Below are positions 1-15,505 of a stretch of DNA of 64,000 nucleotides, one piece after another. The DNA comes from Bryobacterales bacterium (GTDB lineage: Bacteria; Acidobacteriota; Terriglobia; Bryobacterales; Bryobacteraceae), in contig JAYUSZ010000181.1 of NCBI GenBank assembly GCA_043755435.1, positions 3,228 through 67,227 of the forward strand, read 5' to 3'. Position 1 is the first letter of the stretch. The number at the start of each line of letters is the position of its first letter. The translations under genes and the position numbers were made by a program. The notes under the pieces were generated by a model. That model saw nothing but the letters and a program-made list of their open reading frames with translations. It did no database searches and was not told the DNA's origin.

Positions 1-741
1 GTGGAGACGTTCGACAAAATCAACGCCGGTGCCATTGGCAACATTGTCAGTTACTACGGCACTTACTATACATCGCCAGTGAAACCCATGCCTCCAGCAT
101 CGGAACGTCCGGCGGGCATGAGCGATATGGAATGGCAGATCCGGAACTGGTACAACTTTGTGTGGCTGTGCGGCGACAGCCTGGTGGAACAAGCCATTCA
201 TACTGTGGACAAAGTTGCTTGGGCTTTTAACGACCAGCCTCCAGTTAGCTGCGTAGCCGTTGGCGGACGCCAGATTCCTGCTGAGGGCGGCAATATTTTT
301 GACCACTTCCAGGTGAACTATCTTTATCCGAATAACGTGCGGGCAACGGTGGCAAATCGTCAAATGGTGGGCTGCTACAACGAAAACGCGGACTATATTA
401 CGGGGACCAAGGGTGTGGTAACCATTGGCCGCGGCCCAAACCCACGCATCGAAGGCGAAACCACGTGGAGCTTTGAAGGCCAGAAGTACGACATGTATCA
501 GCGTGAACATGATGTGCTGTTTGCCTCTATTCGCAAGGGTCAGGTAATTAACAATGGCGAACGCCTTGCCACCACAACAATGCTTGGCATCATGGGCCGC
601 ATGGCTGCCTACACCGGACAGACCATCACCTGGGAACAAGCTCTGAATTCAAAGGAAAGTCTGGTTCCTGAAAAGTGGGATTGGAACATGAAGCTGGATG
701 TTCCACCAACCGCACTACCAGGCGTGACGAAGTTCGTTTAG
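1..741 (+). CDS. Gfo/Idh/MocA-family oxidoreductase, C-terminal part (5' end lies outside the window)
   Basis: Frame is open from base 1 to TAG 739-741. The translation ([39 protein letters not shown]) resembles the C-terminal domain of exported Gfo/Idh/MocA oxidoreductases. The GTG at base 1 is a window-edge artefact, not a real start. Confidence 0.6.
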
Positions 742-745
742 TGGG

Positions 746-2077
746 ATGCTGCAAAATAATAAAGTTTCGATTTTTCTCGCAGCATTAAGCGTTTTGCAAT
801 CCACTGCGGCAGACTTCACATCAGCTCGCCCGATTCTGGAAAAGAACTGCATGCCGTGCCATTCTGCGGAAAAGGCATCAGGTGGGTTGCGGCTGGATCG
901 GCGTACTAACGCTCTTAAAGTGTTATCGCCAGGGAGCCCGGAAAACAGCGTTCTTCTACTCACTGTCGATCGCCCCGCAAGTAAGCCCGGGGCCATGCCT
1001 CCTGGTGGCCCGCAGTTATCCGCCGATGATCGCGCGGCTCTGCGCAGTTGGATTGCTGGCGGTGCTCCTTGGCCGGAATCTATTGTTGTTGGAGTGAAGT
1101 TGAAAAAACTTCCCGATGATATTGTGCTGGTTGAAAAGCTGCACAAAACCATCACGTCCGCATCGAAAGAAAAGAAAGCGCAAGACATGAAGCCGATGAA
1201 GACGGTGATTCCCGGTACGGACGTATCCTTTGAAATGGTGCCGATTCCGGGTGGTGAATTCCAGATGGGTTCGCTTGAATCGGAAGCTGGTCGAGGCAAG
1301 GACGAAGGTCCGCGGCATAAGGTGAAGCTCGATCCGTTTTGGATGGGGAAGTTTGAAGTTACCTGGGATGAATACCGCTTGTTCATGTTTCCCGATCAGG
1401 CCAAGGAAACCAAAGGCGCTGATCCGAACGTGGATGCCGTTAGCCGTCCGACTAAGCCATATGTTGAGATGAGTTTTGGGATGGGCTTGAATGGCTATCC
1501 GGCAATTAGCATGACCCAACATGCTGCTAACAAATATGCGGAGTGGTTGTCTGCAAAGACGGGACACTTTTACCGGCTGCCCACCGAAGCGGAGTGGGAA
1601 TATGCATGCCGTGCAGGCTCCACAACAGCGTATTCCTTCGGAGAGAATACTTCAAAAGCTGGGGATTTCGCATGGTCGTCAGCCAACGCCAACGGCAAGT
1701 ATGAAAAAGTGGGAACGAAAAAGCCGAATGCCTGGGGCTTGTTCGACATGCATGGCAACGTAATGGAATGGACGCTGGACGCCTACGCTCCTTACAAAAC
1801 AGGCGATGTGCTAAACCCTTGGACGAAATCGAAGGAATCGTACCCGCATGCCGTACGTGGAGGATCTTGGAACGATCCGCCTTCAAAGCTTCGCTGCAGC
1901 ACTCGCGTGGGCAGTGATTCTTCCTGGAAGATGCAGGATCCGCAACTTCCTAAAAGCATCTGGTATCTGACCGATGCTCAGTTTTTAGGATTCCGATTGG
2001 TGAGACCTCTCAATGTGCCATCCGCCCCGGAAATGTTCCAATATTGGAACAACGGTGTTGAAGTGGATAGCAACTAG
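746..2077 (+). CDS. Formylglycine-generating-enzyme (SUMF1/FGE-sulfatase) domain protein with N-terminal c-type cytochrome domain
   Basis: ATG 746, TAG 2075-2077. It has a signal-like N-terminus and a CMPCH haem motif followed by GGLRLD (planctomycete-type cytochrome c). FGE-fold motifs follow: [23 protein letters not shown]. Confidence 0.8.
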
Positions 2078-2987
2078 CGCGCTGGCAGCAACCTGCGTTG
2101 CGCAAGAATGGCATCGCGTGGAGGCTACGGAGCCCCACATGGGTACGCTATTTCGCATCGTTGTTCATGCGCAAGATGAAACCGCCGCACGGGTGGCCAT
2201 GGGGCGAGCTTTCGAGCGTGCAGCCGAACTGGACCAGAAGCTTTCCGACTATAAACCTGACAGCGAATTGAACCGGTTCTGCCGGTCTGTAGTTGGCACT
2301 TCTGTGGCCGTGTCCGGTGATTTGTTCCAAGTGGTGGAGACCTCCTTGCAGATTAGCCGCCAAACTGACGGCGCATTCGATATTACCTTGGGTCCACTAA
2401 CGCATCTTTGGAGAGCGGCGAAGAGGTCGGGGAATTTGCCGTCGCCAAGGGAGATTCTGGAGGCCCGCAAGCGCACTGGCTATAAGAACATTAAAGTGGA
2501 TAGCCGAATGAAAACCCTTTCGCTTCTAAAAGCGCGAATGCAGTTAGATCTGGGCGGGATCGCCAAAGGATACGCAGTTGACCAGATGCTTACCGTTTTG
2601 GTTGCAGCCGGATTCCCACGGGCGCTGGTTGCCGCTTCAGGGGATATTGGGGTTGGTGATCCCCCTCCGGGGCGTGCGGGTTGGACAGTTCAGTTGGAGA
2701 AACAGTCGGTGGAATTGCGAAATCAGGCCGTATCCACGGCGGGCCCAGCAGAGCAGCACCTGGATTCAGGGGGAATTCGATATTCCCATATCATCAACCC
2801 CAAGGCTGGACTAGGGTTGACCAACGGGCTGACCGTAAGTGTGATTGCACCAACTGGAATTCTAGCCGACGGGTGGGATACGGCATTGTCAGTAATGGGG
2901 AAAAGTGGCAAAAACAGATTTAGAAGATATGTTTTAAGCGGCCATGCGCTTTTTTTTAAACCAACTTCGCATCAACCTGAAAAATAA
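2055..2987 (+). CDS. apbE: FAD:protein FMN transferase (ApbE family)
   Basis: ApbE motifs [18 protein letters not shown] and [13 protein letters not shown]. The ORF opens at 2013, but GTG 2055 (or TTG 2058) gives a short lipoprotein-like leader (SALAATC). It overlaps the upstream gene by about 20 nt. Confidence 0.8.
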
Positions 2988-3174
2988 CTAAGCTAAGCTT
3001 TTTCTATGCCTTGAAGCCAGAGATCGGGATAGCGGGTGGTACGTTTTCCCTTTTCCTTGCAACACCAACGATAAAAATAAGTTGTAATAGTACTACTACA
3101 TTTAATATACTGCTGGACAGCGATTAGTTTTACGAGGTCATTGCATTAGCAAAAAGGTCTCTGGAGGAAAATTC

Positions 3175-5998: not shown

Positions 5999-6172
5999 CT
6001 GGTAAGCCCCAGTCACCAGATCAAACGTCCAATACCTATGTACGTGTACGATCGAAGGGCGTCCCACGATTCGTTCATGACACGGCGTGCTATTCGCAAT
6101 TATTGATTCCTCACGTGCATTTTCCCCCTCACTCGATGTACCCTAACTGTTGACAGGGAAGGTCAAACCAAC

Positions 6173-6970
6173 ATGAATGGCAAACTAAAGCTTCTACCTA
6201 TACTCTTGTTCGGAATTTATGCGATCTGGTTCTATTTTGATCACCGGGAAACAGTCCCCATTACCGGTCGCAAACACATGGTGGATATGGACCCGAATCA
6301 GGAGGCCGCGCTAGGGCTTCAATCCTACCAGCAGATTCTCAATGAATCGCAAGTAGCTCCAGCCAGTAGCAAGCTTGTGCAAACGGTGAAGTCGGTAGGC
6401 CAGCGTCTGGCAAAGGTAGCGGAAGACCCGGGATTTAAGTGGGATTTCAATGTGCTGATTTCCGATCAGGCCAACGCATTCTGCCTTCCTGGCGGCAAAG
6501 TGGCGGTCTACACCGGCATCATTCCAGTAGCGAAAACAGATGACGGCCTGGCAATCGTGATGGGTCACGAAATCGCCCACGCCATTGCTCGCCATGGTGC
6601 AGAGCGCATGGCCCAACAGAAGTTGGTTCAAATGGGTGAAATTGCCGCTGGTGTAGCCATCGCCACCATGGAATCGCGCCAACAGCAGGGCATTATGGTG
6701 GCTTTAGGCTTGGGAGCAAAGTATGGAATTCTCATGCCCTTTTCCCGTGATCATGAATCTGAGGCCGACCAGATGGGCCTTATCTATGCTGCCCGCGCTT
6801 GTTTCGATCCCACTGAGGCCCCCAAAGTCTGGGCTCGTATGGGTTCCATCAGTCATGGCCAGCCCAATGAATTCATGTCGACTCACCCCAGCCATGAACG
6901 CCGTATTGAGCAGTTTGAGAAGTGGATGCCCGAAGCTTTAGAAGTGAAGCGAAAGAACTGCGGTAGCTAG
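6173..6970 (+). CDS. M48-family zinc metallopeptidase
   Basis: N-terminal membrane anchor, HEIAHAIARH (HExxH) and a downstream ESEAD motif. The length is typical of YcaL/Oma1-like M48 peptidases. Confidence 0.85.
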   Translation: MNGKLKLLPILLFGIYAIWFYFDHRETVPITGRKHMVDMDPNQEAALGLQSYQQILNESQVAPASSKLVQTVKSVGQRLAKVAEDPGFKWDFNVLISDQANAFCLPGGKVAVYTGIIPVAKTDDGLAIVMGHEIAHAIARHGAERMAQQKLVQMGEIAAGVAIATMESRQQQGIMVALGLGAKYGILMPFSRDHESEADQMGLIYAARACFDPTEAPKVWARMGSISHGQPNEFMSTHPSHERRIEQFEKWMPEALEVKRKNCGS

Positions 6971-7069
6971 CGAGATTCTGCCGATAGTAAAGGCACGTAC
7001 TAGTACGAATGCTTCGAGTCATTCGTGGTTTTGCAATGTAGAATTTGTTCCAGGAGTCTGTCCAAGAGA

Positions 7070-9430
7070 GTGCCGCGCCGTTTGATTTTTCTCAGCCGTT
7101 TCCGGATATTGCTCGCGTTGGTACTCTCCACCGTGCCGTTCGCGCTAGCTCACGCCGCAACGCTGCCTGCCGGAAGTATGCTGGAACTTCGTCTAAGGCA
7201 GGAAGTGAATTCCTTTTCCTCGGAAGAAGGCGCGTTAATCCAGGCTTACCTTTGCTCACCCGTAATGCTGGAAGGCAAGATCTACCTTCCCATGGAAACC
7301 GTTGTACGCGGGCGAATCAAGGAAGTTAAGAGAGTGGGTCTTGGACTGGTCCGGGAACGGGCTTGGCTCCAGTTGGAATTCGATCAGATATTGCTCCCAA
7401 ATGGGGAGATCTACAACATCCGAACCAAAGTTGTTGAGGTGGAAAACGCCAGAGAGCGCGTCCTCGCAAATGGCAGGATCCGCGGCATTCGCTCAGCAGA
7501 CATGCCAGGATATCGCAGTTCCGGCGTAATCACTTCGCTGGCCGCCTTGGATCCCATCGCCCTGGCCTTTGCCAGCACAGCGTCAGCCGCTTTGCTGCGA
7601 TTCCCCGAACCGGAAATCCGCTTCCCTGTGGGCACGGAACTTCTCGTTCGATTGGCTGAACCGGTAGAATTGGGGAACTCCTTTTCCGATCCCACTCACA
7701 AACTACACGTTACAGATGATGATCGACACGAGTTGGGCACAACCATCCGGAAAATGCCTTTCCGCACTAAAACGCTGATCGGCAAACGCGAGTCAGACTT
7801 AGTGAATGTGTTGATGGTTGGCTCACGGAATGCCATCGAAAGGGCTTTTGTAGCCGCCGGCTGGGTAGAGGCTGATCGGGCCACGGCTCAATCCAACTAT
7901 CGGGCTTTGCGGGCCTTTGCAGAAAATCAGGGATATCGGGCTGCGCCCATGTCAACGTTGTTATTGGGCGGAAAGCGGCCCGTTTCCACGTTGTCAAAAG
8001 CCATGAACACGTTCCATAAACGTCACCATGTCCGCATCTTCGAAACTGGCGAGACTTGGCAAGGTCATGAACTTTTCAGCGTATCCTCTACGCAGGATGT
8101 TGGTGTTGGATTTTCCAAGGGAGAAAAGAAATTCACCCATCGTATTGACCCCCATATTGACAACGAGCGGGCAAAGGTTTTGAACGATCTCCTGCTTACT
8201 GGTTGTGTTGATGAGGCTGAGGCTTTGGATCGTCCTTGGGTTCCAAGGGATGCCAAGAACGCTGGTGGCGAAAACCTCGCCACGGATGGAGCCATTGCCA
8301 TCATCCGTTTGAACGATTGCATAGTCCCCCGGCGGTTCGACGAAGCGATTGCTCCTCCACCGGGACCTTTTAGAGGCAACGTCATTTCCCGGGCCAGCCG
8401 GCAAACCATCCTCACCGTGCGCAACGATTTCTATCGCGGAACGTTCGTCTATCAGGGCATTAATGGTGCGATTGCTGGGTTCAAACGCATTCAAAACAGA
8501 AACCTGGAAAAAAGCCCTCGGGAGGTCCGCCAAACTGGAGTCTCTTCTCAATCCTTCCTTCCCTTCAGTTCGTCACTAACTCCCTTACCCAGCCCTATTG
8601 GCCCTGCCCCGCCGCCTCCTCCTCCGCGGGAAACCCCCTACGATATTTGGGAGGCTCCCCGGGTGGAGCTAAGCATGGATTTCGGTTTCCTTCGCTTCGG
8701 AAATAACAGCAGCGGTGCAGAAGGTGTGGTGATTACTCATAGGTTTCCCTCGACGAAAGGTTCCAGCCAACCATTTACGGTGATAGCGGAAAACTTGGTA
8801 CGCTCGGGAATAAGTCTGGGAGGGTCCGTCACGCTGAATTCCCAACGCTGGATGTCTCACGAATTAGGCCTCCATTATCAACGTGGGAGTTTCAAATTAG
8901 GTCTGAAAAGCGTTACCAAAACAGGTTCCGCCGACCTCCCTACAGTGGAGGAACAGAACGCGGGAATCGTAACACGCCAGTTTTCCTACAATACCCTGCT
9001 CAATTTCAAGCCCAGGGAAAGCCGTTGGCGGCCGTATTTGGCGGCAGGACCCGTTCTGCAAATGATCAATCTATCGGATTCCCCGTTTAAGCAAGCTCGA
9101 GGGCTTTTCCGGTTTGGCCTGAACAATGTTGGAATGATTAGTGCTGCCTATAACTTCGGCAACGCAGCCCCGCTGGAAGGTGGTGGCATTTTCCAGATAG
9201 GCGCAATTGTAGGCGCTGGCTTTAAGTACCGTGTGCATCCCCGCTGGACTCTACGATTCGACTATCGCGATACAATAAGCAAGAGTCCTAATTTCCTTAA
9301 GAAGTCACTCACCCAATCCAACATCACCCCAATTGAAGAGGGCGATCCTCAACCAGCCTCAGCACCACCCCTGGTCCGTGGACGGCTGATTCAGCAACGC
9401 ATGACAGTGGGATTTTCTTTTACCTTTTGA
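7070..9430 (+). CDS. LssY_C-like domain protein fused to a C-terminal outer-membrane beta-barrel
   Basis: The ORF opens at 7025, but GTG 7070 gives a signal peptide (VPRRLIFLSRFRILLALVLSTVPFALAHA). The central segment (NVLMVGSRNAIERAFVAAGWVEAD ... HKRHHVRIF) matches my recollection of the LssY C-terminal domain. A poly-Pro linker (PAPPPPPPRE) follows. The C-terminal ~250 aa have alternating beta-strand character and end in the OMP-type terminal F (GFSFTF). Confidence 0.6.
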   Translation: MPRRLIFLSRFRILLALVLSTVPFALAHAATLPAGSMLELRLRQEVNSFSSEEGALIQAYLCSPVMLEGKIYLPMETVVRGRIKEVKRVGLGLVRERAWLQLEFDQILLPNGEIYNIRTKVVEVENARERVLANGRIRGIRSADMPGYRSSGVITSLAALDPIALAFASTASAALLRFPEPEIRFPVGTELLVRLAEPVELGNSFSDPTHKLHVTDDDRHELGTTIRKMPFRTKTLIGKRESDLVNVLMVGSRNAIERAFVAAGWVEADRATAQSNYRALRAFAENQGYRAAPMSTLLLGGKRPVSTLSKAMNTFHKRHHVRIFETGETWQGHELFSVSSTQDVGVGFSKGEKKFTHRIDPHIDNERAKVLNDLLLTGCVDEAEALDRPWVPRDAKNAGGENLATDGAIAIIRLNDCIVPRRFDEAIAPPPGPFRGNVISRASRQTILTVRNDFYRGTFVYQGINGAIAGFKRIQNRNLEKSPREVRQTGVSSQSFLPFSSSLTPLPSPIGPAPPPPPPRETPYDIWEAPRVELSMDFGFLRFGNNSSGAEGVVITHRFPSTKGSSQPFTVIAENLVRSGISLGGSVTLNSQRWMSHELGLHYQRGSFKLGLKSVTKTGSADLPTVEEQNAGIVTRQFSYNTLLNFKPRESRWRPYLAAGPVLQMINLSDSPFKQARGLFRFGLNNVGMISAAYNFGNAAPLEGGGIFQIGAIVGAGFKYRVHPRWTLRFDYRDTISKSPNFLKKSLTQSNITPIEEGDPQPASAPPLVRGRLIQQRMTVGFSFTF

Positions 9431-9434
9431 CTCC

Positions 9435-9896
9435 ATGAAGACCGTAACCAACAAGACAGATCAACAGGAGCTGCGAAACCGGCTCAATGCACTCACTCCC
9501 AATGCACCGCGACAATGGGGCACTATGTCGGCCCATCAAATGATGTGTCACCTAACCGATTCCTTCCGGCTAACCACTGGCGAAAAGGCCGCTAGTATAA
9601 CCGGTGGCTGGTTTGATAGGAACGTCATTAAGCTACTGGCTCTCTACCTTCCCATGCAGTGGCCGAAGGATGTCCCCACCCGTCCGGAAATGGATCAAGT
9701 AAAGGGAAGCGGCACCAAGCCCCAGGATTTCGAAATCGACCGCCAAATTTTACTTGGGTATCTTGATCGATTCTGCCAGCAACCTCGCGATTTCTCCCCA
9801 GGCGCACATCCCATTTTTGGCGAAATGACAGCAGCACAGTGGGACCGTTGGGCTTATCTCCACATGGACCATCATCTTCGCCAATTCGACCGTTAA
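9435..9896 (+). CDS. DinB-superfamily protein (DUF1569-like)
   Basis: 153 aa. The pattern MSAHQMMCHLTDSFR ... IFGEMTAAQWDRWAYLHMDHHLRQF resembles DUF1569/DinB four-helix-bundle proteins. Confidence 0.65.
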   Translation: MKTVTNKTDQQELRNRLNALTPNAPRQWGTMSAHQMMCHLTDSFRLTTGEKAASITGGWFDRNVIKLLALYLPMQWPKDVPTRPEMDQVKGSGTKPQDFEIDRQILLGYLDRFCQQPRDFSPGAHPIFGEMTAAQWDRWAYLHMDHHLRQFDR

Positions 9897-9930
9897 CTTC
9901 CTCTAATTAACCAATTTATATATACCTTGC

Positions 9931-9941
9931 GAGTAGTACTC
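9931..9941. promoter_or_regulatory. 11-bp palindrome upstream of padR-like gene (candidate operator)
   Basis: GAGTA-G-TACTC, about 60 nt upstream of ATG 10002. PadR regulators commonly autoregulate through palindromic operators. Confidence 0.3.
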
Positions 9942-10001
9942 ATAGGTCCAAAAATCGTTTGACTCGTTCAACTATTTTGACTAGTCTTGGGAAATACGCT
10001 T

Positions 10002-10310
10002 ATGGAGGCACCAGCTGATTTCGAGCTTGTCGTCATGCTGGCGGTCTTGCAACTGCCAGGCAAAGCCTATGCCGTGTCCCTCCGCAGGGAAATTGAAGCC
10101 CGGGCGGAAGTGGAAGTGAATTATGGGTCTTTGTACGTAACACTGGAACAGTTGGAGCGTAAGAACTGGTTGCGTTCCAGCAATGGAACGGCAACATCGA
10201 ACCGCGGCGGTTGCCCTAAGCGGCTTTACTATTTCACAGCGGAAGGCCTGAAGGCTTTCCGAAACGCCGGGGTCCAAGTACAGCCCTTGTTGGATGAGCT
10301 TGCAAGTTAA
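10002..10310 (+). CDS. PadR-family transcriptional regulator
   Basis: Winged-helix pattern LVVMLAVLQLPGKAYAVSLRREIE...VNYGSLYVTLEQLERKNWLRS. ATG 10002 is preferred over TTG 9987. Confidence 0.8.
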   Translation: MEAPADFELVVMLAVLQLPGKAYAVSLRREIEARAEVEVNYGSLYVTLEQLERKNWLRSSNGTATSNRGGCPKRLYYFTAEGLKAFRNAGVQVQPLLDELAS

Positions 10311-11269
10311 TGCTGCCCATTTCACCCCGCCATTGGTACACATTAGCCAGACTTTCAGCCCCGCTGCATTTGGGCACCTCCGTCGCCGGTGACCTGCTGG
10401 AGGATTTCCCCGCAATTGCCCAAAAGCGCGGCGACGCATCAGCCCGCCGCTGGTTAGCATCCCAGGTGCTTTCCAGTATCCGTCTCTGGTTTTGGGACGA
10501 TATCAAACATTCCCCGGGCCAACTGGCATTGGGTGTTGCCTTGGGTATGCTCGCTTTTTTTGCCATCAGTGAGGTACTTACCCGCATCCATATATTAGAG
10601 GCGCAGATTCTTCACTTTGTCCTATTCCCATTTACACTAGCTTGGGTTGCAACACTCTTCATGCGTGGAAAGGAGCTATCAGTTGGCTTCCTTTCCGCCA
10701 TAGCTTTAACCTGCCTTCTCCTCCCCGCCAAGTTCTATGCCGTTACAAGCGGAATAGGTTGGATGGCCGGAGCAGGATTATGCAAGTGGCAGCGCGTCAA
10801 ACGCTATCGCAGCAAGGAGGAAGGACCCCAGGCGGTCTACCAAACAGTGACGCACTTTCAATATAGTTCCCTGATTGCCGCACCTGTGGAAACCGTGTTC
10901 GCCTTCCACGAGCGTCCCGATGCCATTCAAGTGCTCACCCCCTGGTGGCTGTTCCCGCGGTTTGAACGTCTCTGCGGAAAGGGCCTCGAAGCAGGTGTGG
11001 AGGTTATAGTAACCACCGCCGGTTTCGCAAAATGGCACGCCCGTCATGTGGCTTATGAAAAGAACAGCCTGTTTGTGGACGAAATGGTCAGCGGCCCCAT
11101 GAAGTCGTGGCGGCATGAACATCATTTCCAGAAACAGGATGGCGGCACACTGCTCACCGATTCAATCGACTTCGTTCCAATCGGCCCCGCTTGGCTAGTG
11201 AAATGGGGGCTTGGGTTATTGTTCCGATTCCGTCATGCTGTGACTCGAAAAGAGTGTGCTAACAACTGA
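10310..11269 (+). CDS. Membrane protein with C-terminal SRPBCC (START/cyclase-dehydrase-like) domain
   Basis: The start overlaps the padR stop (TAATG). The N-terminal cytoplasmic segment contains GDLLEDF...ARRW, followed by 3-4 hydrophobic helices. The C-terminal ~150 aa carry SRPBCC-like motifs (HFQYSSLIAAPVETVFAFHERPD, WRHEHHFQ..DGGTLLTD). Confidence 0.65.
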   Translation: MLPISPRHWYTLARLSAPLHLGTSVAGDLLEDFPAIAQKRGDASARRWLASQVLSSIRLWFWDDIKHSPGQLALGVALGMLAFFAISEVLTRIHILEAQILHFVLFPFTLAWVATLFMRGKELSVGFLSAIALTCLLLPAKFYAVTSGIGWMAGAGLCKWQRVKRYRSKEEGPQAVYQTVTHFQYSSLIAAPVETVFAFHERPDAIQVLTPWWLFPRFERLCGKGLEAGVEVIVTTAGFAKWHARHVAYEKNSLFVDEMVSGPMKSWRHEHHFQKQDGGTLLTDSIDFVPIGPAWLVKWGLGLLFRFRHAVTRKECANN

Positions 11270-11364
11270 CATCTCATCAGCCGCTACTAACCTCGGATAT
11301 TTTGCGTCTGGGTCCGCTAAAATCTCCCCAAACAAACTTTAATTCAAAGTATTACCATTTGAAT

Positions 11365-11700
11365 ATGGCGAAATCCAGTCCAAAGCTCCGTGTGAAAAAA
11401 CCCACCAGCCTTCTAAACAAACCCGTTAAAGCAAACTTCAAAGACCTCTTCAAGGGACTTGCCAAGTTTGCAACGCACACCTTAACTTTCAAGTGGGAAG
11501 ATCTGCCAGCGGACGGGGTTGAATCCCTCGCTGCTCTCAACTTGGTTACAGAACCAAGCGAGCTTGCATTCGAACTGATTCAACGTGCCCTTTCCAATGC
11601 GGTAATACACGCTGATAGGAGAAAGTTCCAACCAACTGACCGTTATGAAAGATGCCGACCGGATGGCAGAGCAGTTGGATTACGAGATATCGTATCGTGA
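11365..11700 (+). CDS. Hypothetical ORF, probably the detached 5' part of the NACHT gene
   Basis: ATG 11365 (MAKSSPKLRVKKPT...). The last ~30 codons are Arg-rich and look non-coding. They overlap the next ORF, whose frame is already open from 11606. Confidence 0.4.
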   Translation: MAKSSPKLRVKKPTSLLNKPVKANFKDLFKGLAKFATHTLTFKWEDLPADGVESLAALNLVTEPSELAFELIQRALSNAVIHADRRKFQPTDRYERCRPDGRAVGLRDIVS

Positions 11701-14038
11701 TATTCATTTCGACCCAAAGTTCCTCGACAGGCCTACTGAACTGCCCATGCTCAAAGACATGGAAGCACTCCTCGAGCAGTGGCTATCAGCTCAAACCGAA
11801 ACCGCCATTTCAGCAAAATTAATCGCGCAGCGGCTCCCCAGCTATTTCGTTTACGCGCTGAATCAAGAATGGCGCCGAAACACCAAATCCTATAAGCCTC
11901 TTCTCGATGCAATGGACACCCCCTTCAGCAAGGCTGGCGACCGCGAGTGGGCTTGGGCCGCATACTCCGCACTGCTCGACAAGCGAACACAGGAAGCCGT
12001 TTTTGACGAGTCCTTTGGTCTGGTTCAAATGTACGTTCCCTTGAATGCTTACTACGTGAAGGAGAAAGACGGCAAGGATTTACATGGTCCGAACAAAGAC
12101 AAACCTCGCCAGCGTATCGTTGTCGTCTTACAGCAGGAATTGGAAGGCTGGCTTCAGAAATCCAAATCGCAGGACGCGATTCGGGTGATAAGTGGTGGAC
12201 CGGGCAGCGGAAAGTCTTCCTTCGCCAGAATCTTCGCTGCGCACCTTTCCAAAAACCAAGGGCTAAAAGTTTTATATGTCCCTCTGCACTTGATTGACGC
12301 AACAAAAGACCTGGTCGATGAAGTGGGACGGTTTGTCAGGGATGAAGGGATACTTTTGCAAAACCCTCTAGACCCAGCTTCACCTGAATCAAACCTGCTA
12401 ATCATCTTCGACGGCCTCGATGAATTGGCCAGCCAAGGAAAGGTTGCTGCAGAAACAGCTAGATCTTTCGTCAGGGAGGTGGAAAGAACAGTTGAAAAAC
12501 GAAATCTCCAAAGCGTCAAGCTTCGAATTCTGCTCTGTGGTCGTGAATTGGTGGTGCAAGACAATGAATCTGAATTTCGGCGCGAGGGGCAGATCCTCAC
12601 ACTATTGCCCTATTTTGTTGGTGGGCTCTCAAAGGATCAGCCGCGTCGGTTGCATGACGGAGAGCAATATCACGATCCCAAAAAAATATTGGAACAGGAT
12701 CTGCGAAATCGTTGGTGGAAGAACTATGCTCAACTCACGGGCAGAAGCTACCAAGGCCTACCAAAGGAGCTGGATCGCCCGGATCTCGAAGAAGTTACGG
12801 CACAACCACTTCTCAATTACTTGGTTGCCCTCAGCTATACACGTGGGGGGTTAGATTTCACCAAAGGAGTGAACCTCAATTCGATTTACCAGGACCTTGT
12901 GAAGGCAGTCCACGAACGCGGCTATGAAAAGAGTCGTGCCTTTGTACCCATTAGAAGTATGAACTTCCAGGACTTCTTTCGGGTTCTTGAAGAAATAGGA
13001 CTGGCAGCCTGGCACGGTGATGGAAGAACCACAACAGTAAAGGAAATCGAGAACCATTGCAGCAACAGCGGGCTTGGCGGCTTGCTGCAGACCTTTAAGG
13101 AAGGGGCGGAAGCGGGTGTAACTCGATTGCTCGCAGCCTTTTTCTTTCGACAATATGGGCAACGACAAAGCGGGGATCCCACCTTTATATTCACGCATAA
13201 GAGTTTCGGCGAGTACCTCACCGCTCGAAGGATTGTGCGCGCAGTAGAAAGCATTGTCAGAGAATCAGAACGTCATGCCGATTATCCGGATGGTGGTTGG
13301 GATGAGAAAAGTGCGCTTAAGCATTGGGTTCAGGTTTGCGGACCCAGCGCAATGTCACAATATCTGCACACATTCCTCCTCAACGAAATTGAATTGCGGG
13401 ATGCAGGTATTCAGGCAAAGTGGCAAACACATTTGGCAAAGCTATTTAGTTATATGTTGCGACACGGAATGCCGATGGAGCTCCAGCCGCTGTCTTTTAG
13501 AGAAGCGATGTTCCAATCCAGAAATGCCGAAGAGTCCTTGCTTGTCGCTTTGAACGCATGCGCTAGAAATACAAAGCAGTTGAGTCCAATAGAATGGCCG
13601 ACTCCGACCACCTTCGGAGAATGGTTTAAGCGGATACAGGGCCAAAGAACAGGCGGTGAATCAGCACTTGCCGCAGACGGCCTTTCATACTTGGATTTGA
13701 GCTCATCAATACTGTTCAATGGCGATTTCTACGGATCGAATCTTAGCTCTTCCCGTATAAGCTCGGGCACTTTTGCTTGCTTTGTTACAGCCAGCCTTCA
13801 AAACGCCAATCTACAGGGGGCCTTCCTCATAAACGCTAACCTCGAAGGCGCTAACCTCGAAGGCGCCGACCTCAAAGTCGCCTATCTCGACCGCGCCCAC
13901 CTCGAACGCGCCCACCTCGAACGCGCCAACCTCGAGGGTGCCAACCTCACAGGGGCGACCGTCGAAATAAACCAATTATCACTTGCTATTACAGACTCGA
14001 CGACAAAGGGAATGCCTACTGTCCGTAAAATCAAGTAA
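11645..14038 (+). CDS. NACHT-type STAND NTPase with C-terminal pentapeptide-repeat domain
   Basis: Walker A is GGPGSGKSSF and Walker B is LLIIFDGLDEL, followed by a long helical/winged-helix region. The C-terminus has 11 consecutive A(N/D/H)L(E/Q)(G/R) pentapeptides. Confidence 0.85.
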   Translation: MKDADRMAEQLDYEISYRDIHFDPKFLDRPTELPMLKDMEALLEQWLSAQTETAISAKLIAQRLPSYFVYALNQEWRRNTKSYKPLLDAMDTPFSKAGDREWAWAAYSALLDKRTQEAVFDESFGLVQMYVPLNAYYVKEKDGKDLHGPNKDKPRQRIVVVLQQELEGWLQKSKSQDAIRVISGGPGSGKSSFARIFAAHLSKNQGLKVLYVPLHLIDATKDLVDEVGRFVRDEGILLQNPLDPASPESNLLIIFDGLDELASQGKVAAETARSFVREVERTVEKRNLQSVKLRILLCGRELVVQDNESEFRREGQILTLLPYFVGGLSKDQPRRLHDGEQYHDPKKILEQDLRNRWWKNYAQLTGRSYQGLPKELDRPDLEEVTAQPLLNYLVALSYTRGGLDFTKGVNLNSIYQDLVKAVHERGYEKSRAFVPIRSMNFQDFFRVLEEIGLAAWHGDGRTTTVKEIENHCSNSGLGGLLQTFKEGAEAGVTRLLAAFFFRQYGQRQSGDPTFIFTHKSFGEYLTARRIVRAVESIVRESERHADYPDGGWDEKSALKHWVQVCGPSAMSQYLHTFLLNEIELRDAGIQAKWQTHLAKLFSYMLRHGMPMELQPLSFREAMFQSRNAEESLLVALNACARNTKQLSPIEWPTPTTFGEWFKRIQGQRTGGESALAADGLSYLDLSSSILFNGDFYGSNLSSSRISSGTFACFVTASLQNANLQGAFLINANLEGANLEGADLKVAYLDRAHLERAHLERANLEGANLTGATVEINQLSLAITDSTTKGMPTVRKIK
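13790..13954 (+). repeat. 15-nt-periodic tandem repeat encoding the pentapeptide-repeat domain
   Basis: GCNAACCTCGAAGGC-like units are repeated in frame (ANLEGANLEGADLKVAYLDRAHLERAHLERANLEGANLTG). Confidence 0.9.
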
Positions 14039-14044
14039 GACCAG

Positions 14045-14254
14045 TTTCGCCTTCGTCTGCTACCGGTTAACCCGATAGAACGACTGCTGGAAGCCGACGT
14101 TTAGGTGATGGTTAAACCGCCGTCGGTTTTTTAGAATGTCACATCCGTCAATGTAACCTATGAAAAGAACCGCCTGTTTGTGGACGAGATTGTCAGCGGG
14201 CCTCATGATGTCGTAGTAGCCAAGCTTGGCCAGATTCAGAAGTTCGAGAGGTAA
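14045..14254 (+). pseudogene. Decayed fragment of an SRPBCC-domain paralogue
   Basis: One + frame reads ...PIERLLEADV*VMVKPPSVF*NVTSVNVTYEKNRLFVDEIVSGPHD... This aligns with residues ...PRFERLCGKGLEAGVEVIVTTAGFAKWHARHVAYEKNSLFVDEMVSGPMK... of the intact gene at 10310-11269. It has two in-frame stops and no upstream part. Confidence 0.55.
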
Positions 14255-14630
14255 TAGAGACCGTTCTTCCAATCCACCCGGGCAGTGGCCAAGCGGGCAA
14301 AGCGGCGCACTATCTCTCCGGTGGAATACCGCTGTTGCGGGATGACAAGCGAGGCACGAACACCCTCATCGTAGGCTTGCTCTTCCGCCGCAATGTCAGC
14401 GTCAATCTCTTTCTTGTTGGAGTGATAAAATGCCACCTTGGAGTTGGCTGTTCGCCTTTATCCGCGTCCATCGGCGTGCATCCGTGGCCCAAATTCTTAA
14501 TTCTGATCCCATCGAAACCCCAATCACACATCATCAAAAATCCCCAACCCCCTCACTCCAAACCACTTCCACCAACACCCAACCCAGCCCGCTTGCCACC
14601 CCATGGGAAAATCCAATCAAGGAAAAATCC

Positions 14631-15197
14631 ATGACATCCGCATCCCAAATCGCCGCCAACATCGCTAACTCCCAGCATTCCACGGGACCCACCACCTTCG
14701 AAGGCAAAGCCCGATCCGCCGAAAATGCCCGTAAATTCGGCTTCTACTCAAAGCAAGCCGTCCTGCTAAGCGACGAAGACCACTACCACTTCGATTGCAT
14801 CTGCGAAACCTTCGAATTCGATCTCCAACCCCAAAACACCATCGAACACACGCTAGTCGAATTAATCATCCTCGCCGCCTGGAATATTCAAAGGTCCAAC
14901 TACCTTGAAGCCAAACTCGCACGCACCGAAGGTGCCGACCCCTTGCTCTCAACCTCTAAAACCATCGATCGAATCCACGCCTTCCGCCACCGCACCGAAC
15001 GCAGTTTGCTCAAACTACTCAAAGAATTCCAGCGTGTGAAATCCGAAACCCCACCCGCCAAACCAATTTTGCGAAACGAACCCAATTTCCCCGCTCCCTT
15101 GCAGTTCATCCCGGCCAACACCCGCCAAAAGTCGCCACCCTACGTCCGCCCCGATGCGAAAGTAAGCGGCGGTTGCACGGTGTCTGACTTTGTTTGA
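14631..15197 (+). CDS. Hypothetical protein
   Basis: ATG 14631 is preceded by AAGGAAAAA. The N-terminal motif ANIANSQHSTGPTTFEGKARSAENARKFG resembles a recurrent uncharacterised family that I cannot name. The 5' extension to 14430 in the track is low-complexity and unlikely to be coding. Confidence 0.5.
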   Translation: MTSASQIAANIANSQHSTGPTTFEGKARSAENARKFGFYSKQAVLLSDEDHYHFDCICETFEFDLQPQNTIEHTLVELIILAAWNIQRSNYLEAKLARTEGADPLLSTSKTIDRIHAFRHRTERSLLKLLKEFQRVKSETPPAKPILRNEPNFPAPLQFIPANTRQKSPPYVRPDAKVSGGCTVSDFV

Positions 15198-15505
15198 CAA
15201 ACATTATCGCGTCCAGTAGCTGGTCGCTGAGATCCTCCGGCAACGGCCAACTTTAATTGGCGGCCTTGGCCTGTTTCAATTTGCCGCTAGTCTGATTACC
15301 TCAGGATTTAAACGCCTGATCCGCCGAGGAACAGCACAGATGAACTGGAAAGGCCATCTAAGGAATGGCTGGCAACCTGGAATGGCGAACACCCCATTCG
15401 TTTGGAAAGCGTCTGCCGATGTCATCCTCGACAAGGTCCGGACGTTGTAAAGAATTATCTGAGACAGGAGACTAGATGGCTGAATTTGCGCGGCTGTAAA
15501 CAAAG

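Follow-up and report, generated by a model that had tools for sequence, protein, structure and literature searches.

By its sequence, the stretch 11365-14038 (+) of the window, the 64-kb piece of DNA that was analysed, is a single gene and not two, and it belongs to the NNH3-NACHT-pentapeptide family. The reading that we favour, and consider probable as a whole with appreciable room for error, is that of a stand-alone clade-9-type gene in an Acidobacteriota genome. It carries a +1-nt insertion within NNH3 that would have turned it into a pseudogene not long ago, and it lies in a 4.2-kb segment that is strain-specific and decaying; its intact relatives would act through an immune-type mechanism and spread by horizontal transfer. 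The features on which this reading is built are collected in Table 1.

Table 1. Positions of the NACHT gene, its parts and neighbouring features in the window
Feature	Position	Strand	Basis or remark
Strain-specific 4.2-kb segment	11261..15483	.	Lies between blocks syntenic with relatives ~85% identical in DNA; contains two remnants of other genes besides the NACHT gene
DNA homology with the intact closest relative L002	11319..14031	+	83.6% over 2718 nt; one blastn HSP
5' part of the NACHT gene, original frame	11365..11604	+	Start codon and first ~80 codons; N-terminal third of NNH3
NNH3 (NACHT N-terminal helical domain 3, PF22735), frameshift-interrupted	11419..12022	+	All-alpha, ~9 helices
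Frameshift site, one extra base (A in GTAATAC)	11604..11605	+	DNA alignment with L002 (GCGCT-ACAC)
Rest of the NACHT gene, +1 frame	11606..14038	+	Annotated 797-aa ORF starts at internal ATG 11645
NACHT module NBD-HD1-WHD, approximate limits	12100..13290	+	Motifs; Pfam; fold match
Walker A GGPGSGKS	12194-12217	+	Invariant in 22 family members
Walker B LLIIFDGLDEL with DGLDE signature	12395-12427	+	D348-G-L-D-E352 invariant in family alignment
GRE sensor-1-like motif	12530-12547	+	Motif coordinates
FTHKSFGEYL	13190-13219	+	Invariant in family
C-terminal helical linker between NACHT module and repeats, approximate limits	13291..13690	+	AF2 secondary structure of P0002 residues ~640-770, mapped by alignment
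Pentapeptide-repeat beta-helix	13694..13969	+	Pfam, PDB matches, AF2
SRPBCC/DUF8410-type gene remnant	14086..14214	+	Paralogous fragment of intact gene 10310-11269
Terminator-like hairpin followed by T-run	14106..14135	+	~70 nt 3' of the stop codon; consensus scan only, such sites being no commoner than in shuffles
3'-truncated gene for a ~211-aa SEC-C-motif protein	14631..15167	+	88% identity to P0274 over residues 1-180 of 211

One gene interrupted by one inserted base

The main ORF (11645-14038, +) encodes 797 aa (P0001 of our protein collection). The 5' frame, as annotated, continues to a stop at 11700 and gives a 111-aa ORF, and the N-terminus of the gene, MAKSSPKLRVKKP, matches the one found in intact homologues. 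Both ORFs match complementary parts of the Pfam NNH3 profile, the upstream ORF with residues 19-80 (profile positions 5-67) and the main ORF with residues 28-126 (profile positions 115-213, E=6e-23). The N-terminal region of ~175 aa, which the first-pass annotation had described as unassignable, is therefore NNH3. Since both ORFs match the same profile, the upstream ORF is part of the gene as had been considered there, though only across a 1-nt frameshift. The exact inserted base is ambiguous within 11603-11609, and the insertion also generates a TAA at 11603-11605 in the downstream frame. When one A is deleted, an 890-aa ORF free of further lesions results, and the repaired N-terminus gives one continuous NNH3 match (profile positions 5-213, 119 bits). 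Annotations should treat the ORFs 11365-11700 and 11645-14038 as one gene and mark it as frameshifted.

The window copy thus has no uninterrupted frame from the family's conserved start to its stop. Owing to the +1-nt insertion, translation from the native start stops after 111 aa, and expression of the other 797 codons would require initiation at the internal ATG, with the first ~80 residues missing. Because the frameshift interrupts the gene, the window copy is probably a pseudogene that yields an N-terminally truncated product at best; such a product, re-initiated at 11645, could keep some activity as the ORF is otherwise intact. Compared with L002, dN/dS is 0.14 overall, 0.07 in the NACHT module and 0.38 in the repeat region. 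The low values, together with the frameshift as the sole lesion, suggest purifying selection until recently, and the copy is most likely a recently inactivated pseudogene. Other family copies are disrupted as well, though not at this position (L014, L026, L049 and L071).

We wondered whether the frameshift might instead have arisen in sequencing or assembly, or represent a minority allele, in an organism that carries an intact and functional 890-aa gene. The contig is metagenome-assembled and the full ORF is regained by removing a single base, but the extra base is also present, in identical sequence, in the independently assembled Logan contig L001, which is reported for 2 samples; the Logan assembly may share reads with the MAG, in which case both could show the same systematic read error or the same minority allele. 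Furthermore, GTAATAC is no homopolymer run, which is the usual error context. The overall dN/dS and the lack of further stops would fit an intact gene, and the four split copies from other species representatives may in part be MAG errors likewise; against this, the gene at hand is surrounded by other truncated genes. Given the same sequence in the Logan assembly and a site outside any homopolymer run, the lesion is probably genuine, and we regard an artefact as unlikely while allowing it a real chance. Joint expression of both ORFs on purpose, whether through a programmed +1 shift of the ribosome or as two parts of a functional split protein, could draw on the 797 open codons of the downstream frame and on an overlap that would permit a +1 shift at GUA-A-UAC, but we rejected it as highly improbable because the close and distant relatives examined are all in frame at the site and the other split copies are interrupted at different positions; the site lacks any conserved slippery or stall motif, and ATG 11645 has no SD-like sequence at a functional distance.

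Domain architecture of the encoded protein

NACHT domains are defined by a Walker B motif that runs into a D[GAS]hDE signature (Kibby et al., bioRxiv 10.1101/2022.07.19.500537). The P-loop and Walker B motif from which the first-pass annotation had deduced a NACHT-like arrangement are both in place, and the Pfam NACHT profile is passed marginally (28.3 bits, cut-off 26.7) and NPHP3_N more clearly (30.2 bits, cut-off 24.8), with similar scores for the intact relative P0002. The best PDB match of the full-length AF2 model of P0002 (pLDDT 70.8) is NLRP9 (7wbt; Foldseek, E=5e-7). Downstream in the module lies FTHKSFGEYL, which we take to be the winged-helix (WHD) histidine motif. With its Walker A motif, D[GAS]hDE signature, profile score above threshold and winged-helix/NLR-like fold, the protein is a NACHT-type STAND NTPase.

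The N-terminal domain (residues 1-235) was modelled by AF2 as all-helical at low confidence (pLDDT 61). Foldseek found no match for this model in the PDB (best E 1.2), and the NNH3 profile gave chance matches only against PDB sequences. An enzymatic effector fold was thus not recognisable by either route, with a model of low confidence, and the proposal of an N-terminal effector domain gained no support from the fold, since NNH3 does not resemble any known effector enzyme. Among the best 150 of the 1078 NNH3-carrying clusters at 50% identity, almost all have the domain at the extreme N-terminus, a location from which we suggest that NNH3 occupies the output position.

At the other end of the protein, the 11 perfect-period pentapeptide repeats noticed at first were recovered as exactly 11 strict A-x-L-x-x units (13790-13954), which lie within a longer degenerate solenoid of ~19 units. 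Most family members have longer arrays (median 28, range 14-75). The region matches Pfam Pentapeptide (E=4e-16) and pentapeptide proteins of the PDB (best E=1.7e-44), the AF2 model of P0002 has a strand every 5 residues here, and the tail is predicted to form a right-handed quadrilateral beta-helix. The repeats are the most variable part of the protein: mean identity is 0.43 there, 0.64 in the linker and 0.70-0.73 (pairwise, across phyla and domains) in the NACHT module. The idea of an NLR-like protein with a pentapeptide beta-helix and an N-terminal non-NTPase domain therefore stands for the architecture, but this copy is frameshifted.

A strain-specific segment with gene remnants

Relatives of the left flank (L088-L090) align to window 6094-11260 and end there, those of the right flank (L086/L087) align to 27052-15484 and likewise end there, and the segment in between is missing from these ~85%-identical relatives. 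We attempted to reconstruct the empty site and abandoned it, as the tails of the left- and right-flank relatives overlap neither each other nor the window segment. The gene debris that had been seen at the flanks is real. The SRPBCC remnant shares 52 nt at 87% identity with window 11046-11097 and 129 nt at 74% identity with the orthologous gene in L088-L090, and the truncated SEC-C gene lacks the C-terminal CPC...CC motif, its homologues carrying PF02810 and the window copy not. With this fragment and this truncated gene beside the NACHT gene, the segment appears to be decaying.

The first-pass annotation had further spoken of an inserted cassette more A/T-rich than its neighbours. The segment is indeed strain-specific, with synteny only up to 11260 and from 15484, but its composition is not foreign. 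GC of the NACHT gene is 0.50 vs 0.523 +/- 0.018 for the genes of the window, a marginal difference that falls on the 8th percentile among sliding windows of equal length, and codon usage is typical for the window (distance 0.093). Foreign composition was accordingly dismissed, since GC, GC3 and codon-usage distance are all inside the window's range. No tRNA, rRNA or Rfam family was found in the 64-kb window, no convincing terminal repeats at the locus and no recognisable integrase or transposase ORF in the 4.2-kb segment. With no rRNA or tRNA to go by, an uncultured member of the Acidobacteriota was deduced as host from named homologues of the PQQ dehydrogenase.

The L002 genome holds the gene in a different context (MutL, a Bro-N protein and DUF433). 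The unit common to both genomes is the gene with a leader of ~46 nt, and the flanks are unrelated.

A widespread family of solitary genes

The combination NNH3+NACHT+Pentapeptide is catalogued as NACHT clade 9 (Kibby et al., bioRxiv 10.1101/2022.07.19.500537, Table S1), and the clade-9 rows that we examined in that table carry no tested-bNACHT label. The window gene appears to belong to this clade, an assignment resting on identical architecture. Our protein search returned more than 1600 relatives, and at least 285 GTDB species representatives encode a family member at ~60% identity (Cyanobacteria, Acidobacteriota, Nitrospirota, Methanothrix and others). The best 80 genome loci are mostly cyanobacterial (Nostoc, Calothrix, Coleofasciculus), with Methanothrix among them too.

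When the 1430 ORFs of 86 loci were clustered all against all, no conserved partner gene emerged, and the commonest neighbour family occurs in 11 of the 86 loci at most, as Nostocales-only synteny. In the loci examined, the family gene is always solitary and its contexts are unrelated and mostly housekeeping, in agreement with the single-gene system that had been postulated. The family seems to spread by horizontal transfer as a single gene. Points counted for mobility were the lack of shared neighbours, the restriction of homology with L002 to 11319-14031, the ~60% identity between Methanothrix and several bacterial phyla, and the synteny breaks at 11260/15484.

A possible role in defence

PADLOC, run on both ORFs and the downstream ORF as the first-pass annotation had advised, assigned no defence system and matched no NACHT or Avs model; the sole match was mad8 at 17.2 bits, confined to the P-loop (residues 180-229). 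A PHROGs scan gave repeat and P-loop matches only. Homologues had also been expected in defence islands. Around them we found mostly housekeeping genes, with small nuclease, toxin or defence-like neighbours occurring sporadically: roughly 10% of the 278 nearest neighbours in 83 loci match a PADLOC model at E<=1e-5, a rough count from top-25 family tables that comes without a background rate. These neighbours include Uma2/PDC-S03, TnpB-like Cas12f, BstA, CARF/Csx1 and PD-T4-6, and the rest are mostly housekeeping genes such as those for ribosomal protein L3, DAHP synthase and adenylosuccinate synthetase. The literature consulted on pentapeptide STAND proteins in defence holds nothing past cataloguing papers and no phage-protection experiment with clade 9. 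For the clade-9 proteins we infer a putative role in defence.

The steps that we propose for the intact relatives are taken from NLR/STAND biology. At rest, the protein would be an autoinhibited monomer. Its C-terminal pentapeptide beta-helix would bind a trigger, either a component of the invader or a guarded host component, and binding would free the NACHT module for nucleotide exchange and oligomerisation. Oligomerisation would then cluster the N-terminal NNH3 helical domains into a non-enzymatic output, which may recruit another factor or act on a cellular target directly. This last step is purely speculative, as no effector fold can be recognised in NNH3 and confidence in its model is low (pLDDT 61).

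Alternatively, the family might be no immune sensor at all and rather a conserved regulatory STAND NTPase, active for instance in the stress or developmental signalling of prokaryotes that form filaments or aggregates, its pentapeptide helix being the scaffold to which a host partner binds. The conservation of the NACHT module, both across phyla and domains and in its dN/dS of 0.07, is unusually high for a sensor, but the repeats are far more variable in identity, dN/dS and unit number. Chiefly housekeeping neighbours, and best loci dominated by Cyanobacteria with Methanothrix beside them, would suit a regulator; yet the distribution is patchy, contexts are unrelated even between close copies, the gene is missing at the site in the host's near relatives and disruption recurs in other copies, all of which points to an accessory, conflict-type gene. 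The lack of a PADLOC model and of an enzymatic effector also fits regulation. However, phage protection is known for many other NACHT clades of bacteria, and clade-9 variants bear EAD10 or Ntox49 domains (Kibby et al., bioRxiv 10.1101/2022.07.19.500537). A regulatory role consequently appears unlikely to us.

A bolder version of the immune reading is conceivable, in which the family is a pan-domain (Bacteria and Archaea) mobile immune receptor whose uniform acidic beta-helix serves, like Qnr and MfpA, as a DNA-mimic bait that traps DNA-binding proteins of the invader, and in which NNH3 is a new non-enzymatic death or adaptor module. We consider this combination decidedly doubtful; if it were true, the window would contain an allele of this system that was lost not long ago.

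Returning to the immune-type reading without these additions, the window gene itself is fairly ordinary, a further and broken copy of an architecture already described by Pfam (NNH3, NACHT, Pentapeptide) and by Kibby et al., and probably an inactivated member of a catalogued NLR-like clade. What deserves notice is the picture at family level, that of a large clade with a solitary gene, present in methanogenic archaea and many bacterial phyla at ~60% identity and with a non-enzymatic N-terminal domain that has no structural relative. Its size and breadth, the solitary gene and this N-terminal domain make clade 9 a reasonable candidate for studying NLR-like signalling without an enzymatic effector. 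Intact homologues from culturable hosts, such as Hymenobacter jeongseonensis BT683, Anabaena azotica SJ-1 and Nostoc strains, are better suited to this than the window locus.

Comparison with known systems

The closest likeness is to clade 9 as listed by Kibby et al. (Table S1), in which the N-terminal domain is NNH3 or NNH4: NNH3 at the N-terminus, NACHT with D[GAS]hDE in the middle and pentapeptides at the C-terminus follow each other in the same order in a single gene, and the listed hosts (Cyanobacteria, Nitrospirae, Proteobacteria) overlap with those found here. The window copy differs in being frameshifted within NNH3, in its shorter array (~19 units vs a median of 28) and in its host, an Acidobacteriota MAG, and it is assigned to the clade by its architecture. 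With the validated antiphage bNACHTs (bNACHT01, which is clade 14, and bNACHT11/12/25/32) it shares the NACHT core, the effector-NACHT-sensor logic and the organisation as a lone gene preceded by an upstream region of its own. These proteins nevertheless belong to another clade and differ in the domains at both ends; bNACHT01, for one, has only a short extension at the C-terminus where the window gene has repeats.

Similarity to animal NLRs lies in the predicted succession NBD-HD1-WHD-HD2 followed by a repeat solenoid, seen in the model match to bovine NLRP9 over 728 columns. Identity to NLRP9 is however ~12% and the whole-chain TM-score is low (0.2), and animal NLRs combine LRRs with PYD/CARD where the clade-9-type protein has a pentapeptide beta-helix and NNH3. 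HetL, Rfr23, Np275/276, Qnr, MfpA and AlbG have the same A(D/N)LXX repeats and the right-handed quadrilateral beta-helix predicted here, but they are small single-domain proteins, some of them DNA mimics that protect gyrase, whereas the helix is here a module of a STAND NTPase. Avs/AVAST systems likewise have a STAND NTPase with repeats as C-terminal sensor and with an output domain at the N-terminus, and an AVAST5 filament (9nc9) is among the fold matches of the P0002 model (E=7e-4). In contrast to the window protein, which is matched by no PADLOC Avs model and whose NTPase has the NACHT signature, Avs proteins typically carry a nuclease or other enzyme as N-terminal domain and TPR-like sensors.

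A frameshifted NNH3-NACHT-pentapeptide gene

The first-pass annotation had described an NLR-like gene whose N-terminal region was unassignable and might extend into an upstream ORF. As an account of the sequence this largely stood: the P-loop, the Walker B motif and the 11 pentapeptide units are all present (table), the last of these within a longer, more degenerate array of ~19 units in total (Pfam Pentapeptide, E=4e-16). As an interpretation it needed correction on the identity of the N-terminal domain, on the clade, which is already catalogued, and on the state of the copy, which is broken. The main ORF matches both Pfam NACHT (28.3 bits, cut-off 26.7) and NPHP3_N (30.2 bits, cut-off 24.8), and its Walker B region contains D-G-L-D-E, in agreement with D[GAS]hDE, the signature by which Kibby et al. 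(bioRxiv 10.1101/2022.07.19.500537) tell NACHT proteins apart from the remaining STAND NTPases.

The N-terminal region matches the known Pfam domain NNH3 (NACHT N-terminal helical domain 3, PF22735), whose profile is divided between the two ORFs: positions 5-67 correspond to residues 19-80 of the upstream ORF and positions 115-213 to residues 28-126 of the main ORF (E=6e-23). Alignment with the DNA locus of the closest relative, the intact protein P0002, revealed one surplus base at window 11604/11605 (GTAATAC vs CT-ACAC); the downstream frame thereby also acquires a TAA, at 11603-11605. Deleting one A restores an 890-aa ORF without any other stop, and NNH3 then matches the repaired N-terminus once, across profile positions 5-213 (119 bits). 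The two ORFs are therefore one gene of NNH3-NACHT-pentapeptide architecture, interrupted by a frameshift.

Features of the NACHT gene and the segment around it (window positions)
Feature	Position	Strand	Remarks
Frameshifted NACHT gene	11365-14038	+	within the 4.2 kb between the breakpoints
Upstream ORF, 111 aa	11365-11700	+	ATG at 11365; neighbouring frame, 56-nt overlap with main ORF
Main ORF, 797 aa	11645-14038	+	
GGPGSGKS	12194-12217	+	in main ORF
LLIIFDGLDEL	12395-12427	+	in main ORF
11 strictly periodic A-x-L-x-x units	13790-13954	+	in main ORF
SRPBCC/DUF8410 gene remnant, 129 nt	14086-14214	+	downstream of NACHT gene, within the 4.2-kb segment
SEC-C-motif protein gene (~211 aa)	14631-15167	+	cut off at 15167, where homology ends

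We consider the frameshift probably real because a Logan contig from a separate assembly (SRR23617201; listed for two samples), which may share reads with the window assembly, carries the identical insertion, and because the site is not a homopolymer run; an assembly artefact is accordingly unlikely. Against the closest relative, dN/dS of the whole gene is 0.14, with 0.07 for the NACHT module and 0.38 for the repeats. Purifying selection therefore acted on the gene during most of its history, and it carries no lesion other than the frameshift. This copy is most likely a recently inactivated pseudogene, from which re-initiation at 11645 could conceivably still yield a truncated product. A programmed frameshift is disfavoured, as the family copies that are likewise split into two ORFs in four species representatives (L014, L026, L049 and L071) break at other positions, which fits sporadic decay or assembly error. 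In L026, a second, fragmentary family copy lies upstream of the split gene. An intact homologue would be a better subject for experiments than the window copy.

The gene lies in a strain-specific segment

Synteny with relatives ~85% identical in DNA flanks the locus: on the left it spans window 6094 to 11260, and on the right it runs from 27052 down to 15484; past both breakpoints the DNA of the relatives is unrelated. The 4.2 kb in between hold the NACHT gene and what had been called gene debris, a description borne out by two features. Over 52 nt the SRPBCC/DUF8410 remnant shares 87% identity with the intact window gene at 10310-11269, and over 129 nt it shares 74% with the orthologue in the relatives, which points to loss of a tandem paralogue or to a past rearrangement. 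The SEC-C-motif gene, whose ORF as listed (14430-15197) begins 67 codons too early, is 88% identical to its homologue P0274 over residues 1-180 and lacks the C-terminal Zn-binding motif (PF02810). The closest NACHT relative is homologous to window 11319-14031 only, that is, to the gene and a 46-nt leader. The NACHT gene is solitary, in a strain-specific segment amid gene remnants. No integrase or transposase ORF was recognised in this segment, and the 64-kb window contains no tRNA genes and no Rfam families at gathering threshold.

The locus had also appeared A/T-rich by eye. By composition the gene does not stand out as foreign, with a GC of 0.50 vs 0.523 +/- 0.018, a GC3 of 0.526 vs 0.546 +/- 0.041 and a typical codon-usage distance. 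The best named homologue of a neighbouring PQQ dehydrogenase is from 'Acidobacteria bacterium' (74%), with Bryobacteraceae matches at ~62%; these homologues indicate an uncultured Acidobacteriota as the host.

Several further observations concern the surroundings. The ~25 nt ahead of the start (AAAGTATTACCATTTGAAT-ATG) hardly differ between window 11365 and position 4076 of L002, the P0002 locus, and contain no Shine-Dalgarno-like sequence in either. To the left, window 9987-11269 encodes a PadR-family regulator and, directly behind it (start/stop overlap at 10310), a membrane protein whose C-terminal domain is SRPBCC/DUF8410; the syntenic relatives L088-L090 keep this pair along with the DUF1569 and LssY_C genes upstream of it. 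Past the break at 15484, the syntenic relative L086 encodes at 11623-13373, after a 133-aa ORF, a 449-aa protein that matches SNF2-type helicases in their C-terminal half only (PADLOC PLD_Helicase/DrmD/BrxH models, E~1e-39) and adjoins a Gfo/Idh/MocA gene. This may be another degraded defence-type gene, and its presence is a hint of a variable hotspot at this site.

A large, conserved family of solitary genes

Searching with the conceptually joined sequence returned more than 1600 relatives, nearly all of 860-1080 aa and with 97-100% query coverage; P0002 (886 aa) is 84% identical. Across 22 diverse members the mean column identity is 61%, and mean pairwise identity is 0.62 in NNH3, 0.70 in the nucleotide-binding domain, 0.73 in the helical and winged-helix domains (HD1-WHD), 0.64 in the C-terminal helical linker and 0.43 in the pentapeptide repeats. 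Repeat counts range from 14 to 75 units (median 28; 119 homologues), which puts the window copy at the short end. In an exhaustive profile search NNH3 occurred in 1078 clusters (50% identity). In nearly all of the best 150 hits it forms the very N-terminus of a protein of ~900-1000 aa; in a few, a further 30-100 aa precede it.

The intact relative was modelled with AlphaFold2 (pLDDT 70.8), and the model's best PDB match was bovine NLRP9 (E=5e-7), followed by pentapeptide-repeat proteins, ORC/Cdc6 and AAA+ ATPases and an AVAST5 filament; a PDB sequence search matched pentapeptide proteins only. Modelled alone, the NNH3 region is all-alpha with ~9 helices at low confidence (pLDDT 61), and it matched no PDB fold significantly (best E=1.2) and no PDB sequence meaningfully.

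Relatives occur in at least 285 GTDB species (one genome scanned per species). Cyanobacteria make up the majority of the best 80 loci, which also include Acidobacteriota, Alpha-, Beta- and Gammaproteobacteria, Desulfuromonadaceae, Bacteroidota, Nitrospirota, Verrucomicrobiota, Chloroflexota and Gemmatimonadota (Longimicrobiaceae) as well as the archaeal Methanothrix/Methanotrichaceae and Thermoplasmata. The family is thus large, conserved and patchily distributed in both prokaryotic domains.

When ORFs called in 86 loci were clustered all-against-all, no family besides the NACHT gene recurred in more than 11 loci, and the largest neighbour cluster (11/86) is confined to Nostocales. Its member, a conserved ~157-aa protein encoded on the same strand 0.5-1 kb upstream (L039, L047 at 3.7 kb, L048, L059, L061, L066, L073-L075, L078 and L083), is the sole recurrent neighbour and probably reflects lineage synteny. 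On each side of the gene, the two closest ORFs that reach 110 aa (278 proteins, 83 loci) are mostly housekeeping, such as ribosomal protein L3, DAHP synthase, adenylosuccinate synthetase, GcvT and peptidases; raw counts for families scattered among them were seven for Uma2, five for PIN, three for DUF559/MTES_1575, two for TIR_2, about two for TnpB-like proteins and one each for BstA, CARF/Csx1 and PD-T4-6. Four contexts with precomputed Pfam annotation agree with this. The gene is thus solitary, its sites differ widely, and now and then it has a small selfish or defence-type gene as a neighbour. In Symploca sp. SIO1C2 (L053), two full-length paralogues (41-3007 and 9989-12934; 988 and 981 aa) lie on the same strand within 10 kb.

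Relation to known bacterial NACHT proteins

No PADLOC model recognises the protein, so that the proposed scan for defence systems lent the candidate no assignment. The architecture itself is on record. Kibby et al. (bioRxiv 10.1101/2022.07.19.500537) define the NNH domains and count pentapeptide repeats among 'antigen-receptor type' C-terminal sensors. Their Table S1 places NNH3+NACHT+Pentapeptide and NNH4+NACHT+Pentapeptide proteins in NACHT clade 9, with hosts among Cyanobacteria, Nitrospirae, Vibrio, Bacteroidetes and others, and with variants carrying EAD10 before NNH3, a C-terminal REC domain or Ntox49. None of the clade-9 rows examined bears a 'bNACHTxx' label, and the clade therefore appears not to be among the 27 bacterial NACHT proteins tested in that study. 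We found no later literature characterising clade 9; the architecture is thus already known and named, yet experimentally untested.

Strong conservation, housekeeping neighbourhoods and the absence of an enzymatic effector keep a non-immune regulatory role a live alternative. A defence role of clade 9 is plausible but unproven. By analogy with NLR and STAND proteins and with other bacterial NACHT clades that have antiphage activity, intact members would be ligand-triggered oligomerising switches, in which the pentapeptide helix would act as the sensor and NNH3 as a non-enzymatic output or adaptor.
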